DNA from: Clostridia bacterium
GTDB lineage: Bacteria > Bacillota > Clostridia > TANB77 > CAG-508
Direction: 5' to 3'
DNA length: 64,000 nt
NCBI GenBank assembly: GCA_017469445.1
Contig: JAFUGK010000008.1
Span: forward strand, 1,291-65,290
The notes beneath the pieces were generated by a model. It did not search any database. It saw nothing but the letters and a program-made list of their open reading frames with translations, and was not told the origin of the DNA. Shown in pieces: positions 242-57,794 of this stretch. Within the stretch, counting starts at the first letter, position 1, and each line of letters begins with the position of its first letter. A program made the translations under genes and the position numbers.

Positions 242-414
242 AGCAAATAATATTAAAATTTATGAAATGACGAATGTGCCGTGGAATGTTGGTGCAAATT
301 CTTAGGATATATCAAGGGAGGAAGCAGAAGTGAGAGGCTCGCTTGATATATCTTTAGAATTTGCAAAACATGTAGCAAGCCGAGGAAATTGAATAAATTT
401 TAATATTATTTGCT
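242..414 (+). repeat. Structured intergenic element family A, copy 1 (MITE-like or ncRNA)
   Basis: 22-bp terminal inverted repeat AGCAAATAATATTAAAATTTAT, nested stems; diverged reverse-complement copy at 28123-28303. Confidence 0.85.
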
Positions 415-11394: not shown

Positions 11395-11558
11395 AACTCT
11401 AAGTAATAATAACATTTTAAAGTGACGCGCAGTTTGGGAGGACTCCAATTCATGCAGATTATCTAGATTAACTTTTCTATTTATGAAAACTTTTTAAGTT
11501 ACTTATATGATTAGTCCGACCAGTAAGGAACGCTAAAATGTTATTATTACTTAGAGTT
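11395..11558 (-). repeat. Structured intergenic element family B, copy 1
   Basis: 24-bp terminal inverted repeat AACTCTAAGTAATAATAACATTTT; diverged copy at 32779-32943. Confidence 0.85.
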
Positions 11559-26104: not shown

Positions 26105-28303
<2,199 letters not shown>

Positions 28304-28316
28304 CTTAATCAAAATT

Positions 28317-28910
28317 TTAATCTTTAAGTAAGTCTTTGCCGTCTTTTAAATAATTCCAACCAGAAAATATAGTCGCAATTACTGAAATAAGCATCATTAC
28401 AGACCAGAAAATATTAATTAATAAGCTTAAGCCTGTAAGATTTCCATTTGCAAATGAGAAAAATTCATTTGTATCTAAAAATGCTGCTATAATTGCAATC
28501 ATTTGTGTAACTGTTTTTAGTTTGCCCCAAATATTTGCAGCTATAACCTTTCCTCCTTTTTCTACAGCAATTAATCTATATCCAGATACAACAAATTCTC
28601 TTGCTAGTACAATTATTGGAATCCATGCTGGAAGTCTAGTTTGTTCTACTAACATTATTAATGCTGCTAAAACAAGAATTTTGTCTGCTAATGGATCTGC
28701 AAATTTTCCAAATGAAGTTACTTGATTAGTTTTCCTCGCAATTTGCCCATCTAACTTATCTGTAATTGATGCAATTACAAATATTATATTAATAATCCAA
28801 TATTCTATTGGTACAATAAAAAAATCTCCCTGTATTCTTAAAAATGGAATAATAACCATTATTGGTACTAGCACTATTCTAAATATTGTAAGTTTATTAG
28901 GTAAATTCAT
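28317..28910 (-). CDS. pgsA: CDP-diacylglycerol--glycerol-3-phosphate 3-phosphatidyltransferase
   Basis: MNLPNKLT.FR, TDKLDGQIARK..Q.TSFGKFADPLADK, GKLKT..Q. Confidence 0.95.
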   Translation of the reverse strand: MNLPNKLTIFRIVLVPIMVIIPFLRIQGDFFIVPIEYWIINIIFVIASITDKLDGQIARKTNQVTSFGKFADPLADKILVLAALIMLVEQTRLPAWIPIIVLAREFVVSGYRLIAVEKGGKVIAANIWGKLKTVTQMIAIIAAFLDTNEFFSFANGNLTGLSLLINIFWSVMMLISVIATIFSGWNYLKDGKDLLKD

Positions 28911-29013
28911 AACTCTTCTCCTTATTTTTTAGTATATCTATTTTACCATTTAAAAGCATTTATATCAATATTCATATTGTAAATTTTATTCAAGATCTGT
29001 CCCAAGTTGGGAA

Positions 29014-32000
29014 TCATTCCCAATTTAGAAACGTCCCCAAGCAAGTTGAGTATATGTAAACTTCTGTTACTTTTTTGTTGGTAGCTTGCTCTAATGCTTT
29101 TTTGTAAATTTCAAGTTGAACATGGTATTTTTGTATTAACTCTTTCCCTTCTTGTACGTAATCTGTTTTATAATCTATTAATACTAAATTTCCATTTTCA
29201 TCTTCATAATACAAGTCTATTATTCCTTGTACTAATATATTTTCATCAGTTCCTTCTTCATATATTTCTTTTGCTGGAATATTTATATAAAATGGTTCTT
29301 CTTTATATACTTTTTTTGCTTTTCTTATTTTTTCTGCAAGTTTACTTTGCGTAAAATTATACAACACATCTGCATCTATCTGTTTTGCCTCATTTTCATT
29401 TATTATTTCTTTTTTAACCATTTCTTCTATCATTTCTATAATCTGCTCTTTTGTATTTATTTTATTTAAATCCATCTTCTGTAAACACAAGTGAATTAGT
29501 GTTCCTTTCTCCGCTCCTGTTAGTTTTGAAGTTTTAGTTAAAAATTTAGGCTTTGGAATTATAAATTCTGTGTTCTGATTTTTCTGCTTTATTTGCTTAA
29601 TTTTACTTACGGATGTTTTACTTTCAAGGGTTGTAGAAAATTGATTTTTATAGCTCCAATTAAGTAAATTATTTATTTTTTCAGCTATGCTTTTATCTTT
29701 AGGTATCCATTTATTAATAATATCTTGTTTATCTATATTTTCTTCATTTTCACTTTTATTAATTATGTCTTTTTTATTATATACATAAACATCCATTAAT
29801 TCTTTCATTATTTTTTCATTTTTCAAATAAACCAATTCCAGCCATGCCAAATAAGATTTATATTGCTTTATCAAGCTAGAATTGATGTTTCCGTAAGCTT
29901 CTAATTCTTTTGTTTTATCAGAAATTGATTTCTTATAGTTTTTTTCTACTCCTGTTATTATTAATTTTTCTCTTGCCCTTGTCAATGCAACATACAAAAC
30001 TCTCATTTCTTCTGCTATAGCTTCTTGCCTTGCTTTTATTCTTATTGCATCACGTGAAATGGTATTATATGATACTTTTATATCTGTATCTATATACTTT
30101 ACACCAAATCCAATGTCTTGATGTAAAACAATACTATCATTTAAATCTCTCAAATTAAATTGCTTTGCTGTATCTGACAAAAACACAATTGGAAATTCAA
30201 GTCCTTTACTTTTATGTATACTCATTATTCTAACTACATTTTCATTCTCTCCAATCAGCTTAGCAGCACCTGTATCTGAATTGCTTAATTTTAGTTTATT
30301 CATAAAGTTAATAAAATTAAATAATCCTTTATATGCAGTACTTTCAAATTTTTTTGCTTTCTCAAATAACATTTTTAAATTTGCAACTCTTACATTTCCA
30401 TCTGGCATTAAACTTACATAATTGTAATATCCTGTTTCTAAGTATATAGTCCAAATTAATTCATCTATTCTAATATATTCTGATTTTACTCTCCATTCTT
30501 CTATTTTGTTTAAAAACTCCTCTATTTTTTGCCTTAGTTCCATATTTTCTTCTTCGCTTTTTGCTTTTTCTAAAGCCTCATAATAGTATCCATTTTGCTT
30601 ATGTAATCTTATTTTTAGCAAATCATTATCTGAAAAATTTCCTATACTACTCCTCATTACAGCTACAAGTGGAATATCTTGCAAAGGATTATCTATTACT
30701 TTTAATACAGACATTATTGTTTGTATTTCTATAGTATCTAAATAATCTTCTCCTGTATCTGTAAATACTGGTATTTGCTCTTCTATTAATGCTTTTTCGT
30801 ATATTGGTGCCAAATTTGTTGTTGCTCTAAGTAAAATAACTATATCTCTAAATTCTATTGGTCTATACTTTCTCTGTTTTTTATCAAATACATAATATTT
30901 TTCTTCTTTTAATTTTTTTATGCTATTTACAACAAATTTTGCTTCTATTTCTGTTTTTTCAGTATGTGCTTGTTCATCATCATCTTCTTCTTCATCTATC
31001 TTGGCCATATCTATAATATGCAATTCAGCTTTTCCTGCATAATTTATATCTTTTTCAGGCTTATCATAATCTTTATCTTGTTTCAAAAATTCTTCATCAG
31101 TATAATCTATATCTCCTAGTTTTTTACTCATTATATTTTCAAAAATTATATTTGTTAAATCTAATATGTTTTTTCTACTTCTAAAATTTTTAAAAAGCTG
31201 AATTTTTAAATCATCATTTTCCCTAAGTTCTTGTTTTAATTTATATTTTTCATATTTTTCCAAAAACAATTCCGGTCTAGCTTGTCTAAATTTATATATA
31301 CTTTGCTTGACATCTCCTACCATAAACATATTTTTACCATTTGATACTGATGTTAATATTTGCTCTTGCACCATATTACTATCTTGATATTCATCTACAG
31401 CAATTTCTGTAAATTGTTTCATATATTTTTTTGCTGTTTCCGTTTTTTCATAATTTCCTTTCTCATCTTGTTTTAGTAAAATTTCTAATGCAAAATGCTC
31501 TATATTATTAAAGTCTATAACATTTTTTTCACTTTTCTTTTTTTCATATAATTCAGAAAAAGAAATAATAATTTCCTTTATGCTTTTTAATATGTTATAC
31601 ATAAATTTTGCATCTGATTTGATTTGTGATGAATCATATGCAAAATATGTCTCTCTATCTTTCACAAATTTCTTTTTAATTGTATCTCTTAATTCTTTTG
31701 CTTTATCCTTTATATCTAAAGTAATTTTACTATCTTTCTTCCACGAAATATATTCTACACTATATGCTTTTTGCATCATTTCATCCCAAGTTTTAGCATT
31801 GTAAATAATGTTATTATATTCATTAATATCTGCTCTTAATATATCTGCATATTTTTTTGTTTCTGAGTATAAATCTAAATTTTTAGCCATTCTTTCTAAT
31901 TTTTTAATTGAATTTTCTATATTTCCCTTAAATTCATCTACTATTATTTTTCCCCATATTGTATTTAATATTTCCGTATTCTCATCTATGTTAAATTCCT

Positions 32001-32778: not shown

Positions 32779-32943
32779 AATTCTAAGTAATAATAATATT
32801 TTTTTGCTCCTTACTGGTCGGACTAATCATATAAATAACTTATAAAATTTTCAAAATCAGAAAAGTTAATCTATCTAATCTGTATGAATACGAGTCCTCC
32901 CAAACTGCGCGTCGCTACAAAAATATTATTATTACTTAGAATT
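32779..32943 (+). repeat. Structured intergenic element family B, copy 2
   Basis: Homolog of 11395-11558 in opposite orientation; terminal IR AATTCTAAGTAATAATAATATTTT. Confidence 0.85.
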
Positions 32944-57710: not shown

Positions 57711-57794
57711 AAGGAGCTGCTTTAAGGGACACCTACCAAAAACATCTTAGATTTTTAAGATGTTTTTGGTAGGTGTCCCTTAAAGCAGCTCCTT
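57711..57794. repeat. Perfect 39-bp inverted repeat / bidirectional terminator
   Basis: AAGGAGCTGCTTTAAGGGACACCTACCAAAAACATCTTA, 6-nt loop, exact reverse complement. Confidence 0.85.

Follow-up and report, generated by a model that had tools for sequence, protein, structure and literature searches.

What is the structured sequence that occurs twice in the window, the 64,000-nt stretch of contig JAFUGK010000008.1 from a Clostridia bacterium that was analysed here? A preliminary description, made from the two copies and calling them Family A, had seen in them selection on a single-stranded structure, and had offered two readings: a non-coding RNA or cis-regulator, or a non-autonomous mobile element. 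We give a probability of about 0.6 to the reading that Family A is a selfish, non-autonomous mobile hairpin repeat, REPIN- or MITE-like, that works as a folded single strand. The evidence for this, and the alternatives that it has to be weighed against, are set out below, starting from the anatomy of the two copies.

Each copy forms one long hairpin with a conserved, structured tip. Copy 1 occupies positions 242-414 of the + strand, between a divergent RsmB-like gene (start codon 155-153, minus strand) and tsaE (ATG at 541), and a covariance model of 153 positions and 42 pairs (R1) matches it over 253-404 with 144.5 bits. Its 5’ arm (242-263, +) pairs with a 3’ arm (393-414, +) that is its 22-nt perfect reverse complement, as judged from the minimum free energy fold and the arm alignment; the 5’ arm can be subdivided into a variable outer part (242-252) and the 5’ strand of a conserved inner stem, P1 (253-259), the pairs of which correspond to columns 1-7/177-183 of the alignment of cores described below (A2). 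Inside the arms lies a basal internal loop, the conserved 5’ side of which (264-285, +) holds GACGAATG at 269-276, and the conserved 3’ side of which (372-392, +) holds GCCGAGGAA at 379-387. RNAalifold and pair counts then place two helices on the + strand, P2 (286-291 with 366-371) and P3 (294-302 with 356-364), beneath a helix P4 (306-316 with 342-352) that carries the conserved apical loop (306-352 in all, +), with the motifs GGGAGGAAGC at 316-325 and GAGAGGCTC at 332-340 of the + strand.

Copy 2 lies on the minus strand at 28123-28303 (read from 28303 to 28123; model match 28135-28290, 137.2 bits), and has the same motifs in the same order: GACGAATG at 28274-28267, GAGAGGCTC at 28207-28199 and GCCGAGGAA at 28160-28152. 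Its insertion separates the stop codon of a CDP-alcohol phosphatidyltransferase gene (pgsA-like) from the ribosome-binding site of ligA, and about 190 bp, its arms (TAAGCC.../...GGCTTA) included, lie at this junction. After its end at 28123 only TAAT precedes the ligA Shine-Dalgarno sequence AGGAG (28118-28114) in the start region of that gene (28103-28118, minus strand; ATG at 28105-28103), so that the 4-bp gap reported earlier is correct, as are the coordinates of both copies. With their flanks, the two copies align with a mean column identity of 89%. The sequence likewise bears out the pattern of change from which the preliminary description argued: the four loop motifs that it quoted, GAAATGACGAATGTGCCGTGGA, GGGAGGAAGCA, GTGAGAGGCTCG and TAGCAAGCCGAGGAAATTGA, are identical in the two copies; the stems differ by compensatory changes, with G294-C364 of copy 1 replaced by A-T in copy 2 and A286-T371 by G-C; and the outer arms are unlike each other (AGCAAATAATAT vs TAAGCCATAATATA), each being complementary to its own partner.

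We then asked whether the fold is a property of the family and, if so, of which strand. The + strand of copy 1 folds with -67.2 kcal/mol (z -12.6; none of 200 shuffles equals it) and its minus strand with -53.3 kcal/mol (z -11.3), so that the + strand is the stabler by 14 kcal/mol. In an alignment of 106 cores, each less than 96.5% identical to the others (A2), RNAalifold predicts 42 pairs, comprising helices P1-P4 and an apical pairing. Double changes are found in 32 of these 42 pairs, including 6/6 pairs of P2, 7/9 of P3 and 10/11 of P4, and one pair (columns 39/145) spans all four Watson-Crick types (UA 29, GC 27, CG 19, AU 16). The predicted pairs are filled in 94.0% of cells, compared with 68.6% in shuffles, and double-change cells number 1059, compared with 335 after shuffling. 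The covariation score of 0.625 likewise exceeds that of shuffled alignments (0.178; 0/500 reach it) and of alignments in which partners were slid by 1-3 columns (0.105-0.145), these controls somewhat overstating the contrast, since this alignment also supplied the structure and contains related sequences. Between the helices lie asymmetric, purine-rich loops that are invariant: GACGA.TG, GAGG..GC, GAGAGGCTC and GCCGAGGA. Within GACGAATG, the alignment columns of GACGA, T and G do not vary in any of the 106 cores.

The helices also indicate the strand. At pairs that are Watson-Crick in the majority of cores, G.U cells outnumber A.C cells by 98 to 36 (by pair, 16 vs 9, with 15 ties), and two further core pairs are conserved wobbles, which on the opposite strand would be A.C mismatches. 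It follows that the + strand, the one that carries GACGAATG, is the strand that folds and is under selection, an argument that fits RNA and single-stranded DNA equally. Together with a covariation far above the shuffled and slid controls, this upholds the earlier proposal of selection on a single-stranded structure. A coding function is not indicated: no reading frame is conserved in Family A, a GTG start occurs in 8 of the 106 cores, frames within the core run to 4-24 codons, and 24 of them reach the core end without a stop. These scattered frames and the rarity of GTG rule out a peptide read from the Shine-Dalgarno-like GGAGG and GTG. Two further likenesses, of CCGAGGA...GAA to the hammerhead core and of the loop motifs to those of the hairpin ribozyme or loop E, were dropped, because the element differs in topology and is not matched by the Rfam models.

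The arms behave differently from the core. Arms could be fitted in 130 of 131 unique elements (the exception being L006), with a median length of 32 nt and a range of 16-93 nt. Among pairs of copies whose 120-nt cores are 96-100% identical, the arms are only 45-90% identical: L150 and L175 have a core identity of 100% and an arm identity of 68%, and three copies from a single genome (L017, L031 and L040) have cores at 96.7% and arms at 45-68%. Complementarity is nevertheless almost complete. Of the 130 fitted elements, 70 have arms of 20-60 nt without gaps; 97.2% of their arm pairs (2421 of 2490) are Watson-Crick, half of these arms (35 of 70) are perfect, and wobbles are not in excess among the mismatches (G.T 16, A.C 25). 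The 5’ arm is twofold richer in G (383) than in C (197). Slow compensatory selection would be expected to yield arms that change slowly and by way of wobbles; the opposite is seen, and the copying of one arm from the other would explain it. Orthologous copies in three species (L108, L158 and L183) accumulate uncompensated arm mismatches, and this decay suggests that arm symmetry is renewed when an element is copied rather than in place. A fold-back origin also has apparent derivatives, about four copies in all, on which this part of the model is based. In a remnant in the host genome (G000:C5, ~111290-111400), a 5’ arm with 20 nt of core is followed by the 5’ arm and ~42 nt of core in reverse complement; an element in a sister species (G002:C1:167254-167325) has perfect arms around a core reduced to 13 nt; and two perfect palindromes that lack a core have flanks like those of the latter. 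We thus infer that arm symmetry is restored by copying one arm from the other.

Could such correction account for the whole element? If Family A were a neutral palindromic repeat, its covariation would come purely from template-switch correction of quasi-palindromes, with no selection on a folded strand, and arms that are perfect, fast-diverging and free of a wobble excess, as well as the existence of fold-back derivatives, are in keeping with this. The core, however, is not palindromic, its purine-rich loops are asymmetric and do not vary from genus to genus, and symmetric DNA correction would erase both the 98 vs 36 excess of G.U and the two conserved wobbles. We therefore consider this explanation highly improbable.

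The copy number and distribution of Family A are those of a mobile repeat. The preliminary description was right that both copies in the window are real, but they belong to a larger set: the host genome (G000; a 1.53-Mb assembly of 28% GC in 26 contigs) holds 13 full copies on 8 contigs, on which BLAST (E-values of 2.6e-26 or better) and the covariance model agree, along with the one rearranged remnant mentioned above. Nine of these copies are ~87-93% identical to copy 1 and four ~75-80%. The element measures ~175 bp in this genome and up to ~330 bp in relatives. A covariance model, which had been suggested as a check from the outset, finds matches across genomes of the taxonomic family: 6-10 in each of the four sister species of the genus (G001-G004), and 1-20 copies per genome in 37 of 151 sampled genomes of the family, from 22 of 50 genera. 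The distribution is patchy, and Family A is often restricted to some species within a genus. In a class-wide sample of 151 genomes only two match, both from Family A’s own taxonomic family, and none outside it. An exact pattern built on the three invariant boxes finds at least 115 loci in at least 45 assemblies among species-representative genomes; 43 assemblies among the pattern matches listed are labelled Clostridia, Clostridium, Eubacteriales, Clostridiales, Clostridiaceae or Bacillota and come from animal or human gut. Pattern matches in an archaeon and in an Aminicenantes metagenome-assembled genome (MAG) (L146, L156) were dismissed, as neither has a covariance model match. The carriers are Clostridia of gut and rumen that have small genomes and have been seen only in metagenomes.

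Searches for relatives elsewhere returned nothing of the kind. The exact-pattern scan of viral contigs gave 0 loci and the plasmid search no Family A match; a 36-nt match in phage records, within an anti-repressor gene of four Clostridium tetani phages, was taken as chance. Scanned with Rfam 15 at the gathering thresholds, the whole window yields three tRNAs and nothing else, and at E<=10 the best hits to positions 150-550 are eukaryotic miRNA and snoRNA models, far below gathering. Our literature search likewise found no description of Family A, in line with the preliminary description, which did not recognise a named family in it.

Comparison of filled and empty sites supports insertion directly. 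In all four congeners (G001-G004) the site of copy 2 is empty: the stop codon of the pgsA-like gene and the ligA start are separated by ~15 nt (TAA-AGGGG-TTTTTAAA-GTG), with no palindrome. A second empty site was found at a copy in G001 (L031), where a spacer of 407 nt corresponds to one of 76-80 nt in G002 and G003. Within the host species, four of four metagenome runs are filled at the copy-2 site, with contigs over 26800-29600 that cross both ends of the element and none that skips it, so that the ligA insertion looks fixed. The 13 junctions in the host genome and the filled/empty comparison show no shared direct repeat that would mark a target-site duplication, the flanks being AT-rich and the sister species ~20% diverged, and they do not define the exact ends of the element.

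Several ideas about the origin of the element were considered and set aside. The arms do not appear to be inverted copies of the target, there being no arm-like sequence in the empty ligA and L031 sites, although these are diverged. Insertion of a core into pre-existing TAGAGTAG-palindrome-CGGC hairpins was rejected, since core-less hairpins are few (three in five genomes, the other five of eight pattern matches being tRNA genes or chance) and the empty ligA site has no palindrome; a joined empty target occurs at chance-level frequency. Nesting within another repeat, GGGGACG, holds for only 3 of 128 elements. Half-matches at the ends of G004 contigs had raised the suspicion of a longer parent element, but they turned out to be broken contigs, a complete copy, or a form in which a deletion has left the 5’ half only. 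The assembly contains only one pair of large near-identical repeats, of 1.3 kb, bearing in mind that MAG assemblies can lose IS copies. Hairpin elements also break MAG assemblies.

The same comparisons bear on the idea that the element acts in cis on the gene that follows it (tsaE or ligA), as a regulator, a terminator or a leader. Both window copies do point at the next gene, copy 2 at a distance of 4 nt from the ligA Shine-Dalgarno sequence, and any mRNA with so stable a hairpin in it would be affected. Yet ligA lacks the element in four of four sister species, and the genes beside the 13 copies in the host genome are unrelated. From 200 flanking open reading frames extracted, 63 were scanned (loci of G000-G004, G009 and G019), and those with a Pfam match are nearly all housekeeping genes, with functions such as rRNA and tRNA modification, topoisomerase, SHMT, sporulation, FtsA, MreB, GreA and RNase Y, among others; one of the 63 is transposase-like. 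Nor does the orientation of the window pair extend to the family. At 99 loci with usable flanks, Family A lies between co-directional genes as antisense to both in 37 cases and in the sense direction in 16; the remainder lie between divergent genes (16), between convergent genes (6) or in ambiguous settings (24). The antisense bias rules out a general leader function, and a cis-regulatory explanation is, in our judgement, exceedingly unlikely. Of the two readings first offered we favour the non-autonomous mobile element, with its 13 copies, its empty sites, its patchy occurrence and no conserved coding capacity. The bias itself may reflect how the element inserts, or selection that keeps the stabler hairpin out of operons.

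Orientation can be considered relative to replication as well. The + strand of Family A lies on the C-rich strand at 74 of the 99 loci, a trend reversed in the host genome (8 G-rich, 5 C-rich). IS608-type elements expose their active strand as the lagging-strand template. Since it is mostly on the C-rich strand, the + strand of Family A is in most cases not the strand exposed in that way, and its orientation to GC skew is therefore mostly opposite to that of IS608.

A subfamily among the relatives carries additional flanking features. In 29 of the 130 fitted elements (from G001-G004 and other MAGs), TAGAGTA precedes the arm and GGCT...TTTAA follows it, and the foot of the hairpin has GTAG (TAGAGTAG) on its 5’ side and CGGCT, which contains CT, on its 3’ side; copies in G002 and G003 have a further imperfect outer stem and then a conserved C/A-rich tail. 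The 13 host-genome copies have short arms and none of these features, that is, no GTAG, TAGAGTA or CGGCT flanks and no tail. An inverted-repeat scan (50-260 nt enclosed) also revealed at least three unrelated hairpin families in the host genome, with 16, 11 and 10 copies, that have the size and shape of Family A, a conserved cap, and outer arms that are variable yet complementary. Two copies of one of these families lie in the window. The common shape of unrelated sequences argues for a common way of spreading.

These features are relevant to the possibility that Family A is in the first place a small structured RNA gene, with a + strand hairpin RNA of ~170-330 nt that binds protein or is catalytic, and with its spread being secondary. 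The invariant purine-rich loops and freely covarying helices over 22 genera are what such a gene might look like; the G.U excess runs opposite to the mutational skew of the usual host strand, if our argument from skew is sound; TAGAGTA, the GGCT...TTTAA of the 29 relatives and the C/A-rich tail of the G002 and G003 copies might serve as promoter box, terminator-like run and single-stranded tail; and the prevailing antisense placement (37 vs 16) is one that a unit transcribed on its own could show. The window copies, however, lack TAGAGTA and the tail, and promoter-like matches at them number 4, with 3.9 expected (7 vs 3.1 in the surroundings of copy 2), in consensus scans for promoters and terminators that are uninformative in DNA so AT-rich. 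Further, wobbles are not tolerated in the arms; Family A varies between 0 and 20 copies among close relatives at sites that are not conserved, as a host RNA gene would not; and three unrelated families of the same shape suggest a common way of spreading rather than four RNA functions. An RNA gene that spreads only secondarily is thus a possible but less likely account, somewhat more credible than the other alternatives considered here. A variant in which the core is a functional RNA, as a ribozyme or a ribonucleoprotein scaffold, that serves the element’s own copying, with the hypervariable, perfectly paired arm as a programmable duplex that is processed into a guide, or as a mark of the individual copy, seems to us unlikely. 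If it were true, these gut Clostridia would harbour an undescribed type of RNA-directed non-autonomous element, in several families.

The GTAG foot raises the question of whether Family A is instead a REP or REPIN proper, that is, a GTAG-tagged palindrome moved as single-stranded DNA by a Y1 transposase of the RAYT/TIRYT type encoded elsewhere in the genome. For TnpA-REP, PMC8266576 gives as substrate determinants a GTAG at the foot of the hairpin, acting as guide, and a CT after it as the 3’ cleavage site, and the GTAG foot and CGGCT of 29 of the 130 elements match this description. All five genomes of the genus (G000-G004) encode Y1_Tnp proteins of ~240-250 amino acids, and across the sampled genomes of the family a Y1_Tnp match is somewhat commoner in carriers (26/37) than in non-carriers (55/114), in counts uncorrected for kinship. 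Against this, the GTAG tag is absent from all 13 host-genome copies, and the Y1 genes are associated with another repeat: six Y1_Tnp loci were fetched, of seven matches in the five genomes, and they are bracketed by GGGGACG upstream and CGTCCCC downstream, with nothing at E<=1 when these loci are searched by nhmmer with the Family A core. The GGGGACG repeat fits the GGGGWSAS-type terminal inverted repeats described for TIRYT genes in PMC3733652. In addition, 11 of the 37 carriers have no Y1_Tnp match, among them four genomes at 99-100% completeness that hold 7, 8, 13 and 17 covariance model matches (G011, G062, G102 and G103, respectively); Family A is also 5-10 times the length of a REP, with conservation at the apex rather than the ends. 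The link between a Y1 transposase and Family A is accordingly weak, no other candidate partner enzyme was found, and we think it rather unlikely that Family A is a REP or REPIN in the strict sense.

Returning to the mobile hairpin repeat as the preferred reading, it seems reasonable to suggest the following scheme. The working form would be the folded strand that carries GACGAATG...GAGAGGCTC...GCCGAGGAA, in which a 150-nt core of four helices would display three invariant purine-rich loops. These loops would most likely be recognised by a trans-acting protein, whereas the helices would need only to pair, and so could covary. The long outer arms would close the hairpin. They are apparently remade as exact complements by fold-back (template-switch) DNA synthesis, which may take place during replication or transposition, and would not depend on slow compensatory selection for their pairing. 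Insertion would be into AT-rich intergenic DNA beside any gene, and effects on neighbours such as ligA would be by-products. Both a single-stranded intermediate in the spread of Family A and a trans-acting enzyme that moves it are presumed by this scheme. We note as a counterpoint that a 150-nt core with invariant loops over 22 genera exceeds what known single-strand transposases need at element ends, and is RNA-like.

How does Family A compare with known systems? MITEs have conserved terminal inverted repeats, target-site duplications and usually a parent IS. In Family A, by contrast, the outermost arm is the most variable part, even where cores are 96-100% identical, and neither a duplication nor a parent element was found in our searches. 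With MITEs such as Correia/NEMIS, ERIC, RUP and BOX (see PMC3184786), it shares being small, non-coding, multi-copy and intergenic and forming a stable hairpin. Another parallel, compared by description only, is bcr1 of the Bacillus cereus group, which that review describes as a Firmicute repeat of ~155 bp with positions not conserved between strains, treated as non-autonomous and mobile, in which compensatory base-pair changes keep the fold (PMC3184786). Unlike Family A, bcr1 is bounded by 5-bp direct repeats and forms a cruciform of two stem-loops, rather than one long hairpin with no recognisable duplication, and its transcription has been shown (PMC3184786), whereas Family A is known here from DNA alone.

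The likeness to REP and REPIN sequences is similarly partial. These too are dispersed, intergenic, non-coding hairpins of one strand (Bertels and Rainey 2011, PMC3116915; Di Nocera et al. 2013, PMC3733652; Corneloup et al. 2021, PMC8266576); REPINs, as PMC3116915 describes them, combine compensatory changes in a hairpin with an excised form that is asymmetric and has to be made symmetric again, and Family A resembles them in its compensatory changes along the hairpin and in having no linked gene. The GTAG and CT of the 29 relatives and the Y1 transposase genes of the genus add to the resemblance. Family A is, however, longer (175-330 nt, compared with 20-40 nt for a REP and ~100 nt for a REPIN), it conserves a large asymmetric apex and has hypervariable arms where REPINs conserve short REP units at their ends around a more variable spacer at the tip, its host-genome copies have neither GTAG nor CGTC at the 5’ foot, and, unlike the arrangement in a REPtron, the Y1 genes of the genus are flanked by another repeat and 11 of 37 carriers have no such gene. 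With the ends of IS200/IS605 elements, Family A would share recognition of a folded single strand, strand specificity, the apparent lack of target duplication and a guide tetranucleotide 5’ of the hairpin, but those elements have two different small subterminal hairpins (PMC8266576), whereas Family A has one giant hairpin. By the membership tests run, Family A lies outside REP/REPIN, outside classical MITEs and outside every Rfam family; in its way of working, our best reading places it with REPINs or with structured MITEs, of which bcr1 is an example.

What may make Family A useful beyond this genome is the unusually clean data set that it offers, with upwards of 100 diverged copies, helices that covary strongly and loops that do not vary, and the presence in one element of two regimes of stem evolution, a core that compensates through wobbles and arms that evolve fast with always-perfect complementarity. 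This contrast makes directly testable an old question about repeats of the REP and REPIN type, namely whether the selected hairpin is DNA or RNA and how its symmetry is restored. For the host, several families of ~170-nt hairpins with 10-16 copies each are a substantial load on a 1.5-Mb genome. Bacterial MITEs can adjoin ribosome-binding sites and alter expression, and hairpins that lie a few bases from the ribosome-binding sites of essential genes such as ligA are likely to shape both gene expression and genome stability in these Clostridia.

The hairpin shape of Family A, the mobile repeat under study, recurs in other families of the same genome. A second hairpin family, whose cap begins ...GACGCGCAGTTTGGGAGGAC..., is represented in the window by copies at 11395-11558 (+) and 32779-32943 (-), and the genome (G000) holds 11 copies of it, each of about 160 nt. 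The outer arms of these elements vary between copies while their complementarity is kept, and the family is unrelated to Family A. The same hairpin shape is also found in two more families, of 16 and 10 copies, elsewhere in the genome.

Family A itself occurs in rearranged and shortened forms. Outside the window, at about 111290-111400 of contig C5 of G000 (locus L014:1470-1560), lies a fold-back derivative whose right half repeats the left half in reverse complement, where the normal 3' half would stand. In the sister species G004, a short form on contig C14 (locus L045:985-1105) retains the arms and the TAGAGTAG/CGGC flanks, together with a core consisting of the 5' half only. Because its junction coincides with an AAATTTTAT repeat, this short form looks like the product of a deletion between direct repeats. 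Several half-matches to Family A resembling it were found at contig ends of G004.

Further repeats were detected in and around the window and elsewhere in the assembly. A prepilin-type protein is encoded just upstream of the window, and the part of its gene that specifies the N-terminus (G000:C14:260-337; locus L001:229-306) recurs in dozens of paralogues in the sister species G002 and G003. A short perfect-palindrome repeat, GACACCTACCAAAAACAGCTTG...CAAGCTGTTTTTGGTAGGTGTC, is present in seven copies, one of them at window positions 57711-57794, within a longer inverted repeat. Two small contigs of G000 share a terminal 1342-bp stretch (C6:1-1342 and C25:1-1342; 99.9% identical), which is the sole large near-identical repeat in the assembly and possibly an IS or rRNA fragment.

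Finally, the palindromic motif TTGGGGACGTTTCTAAATTGGGAATGATTCCCAACTTGGGACAG is present at window positions 28993-29040 and, upstream of the window, at about 470-530 of contig C14 of G000. In G000 and its four sister species (G001-G004), motifs of the same kind, GGGGACG / CGTCCCC, flank the genes for Y1 transposases (RAYT/TIRYT-like) on both sides, and numerous copies of this repeat occur in G002 and G003. The GGGGACG / CGTCCCC repeat is a REP/TIR system separate from Family A.
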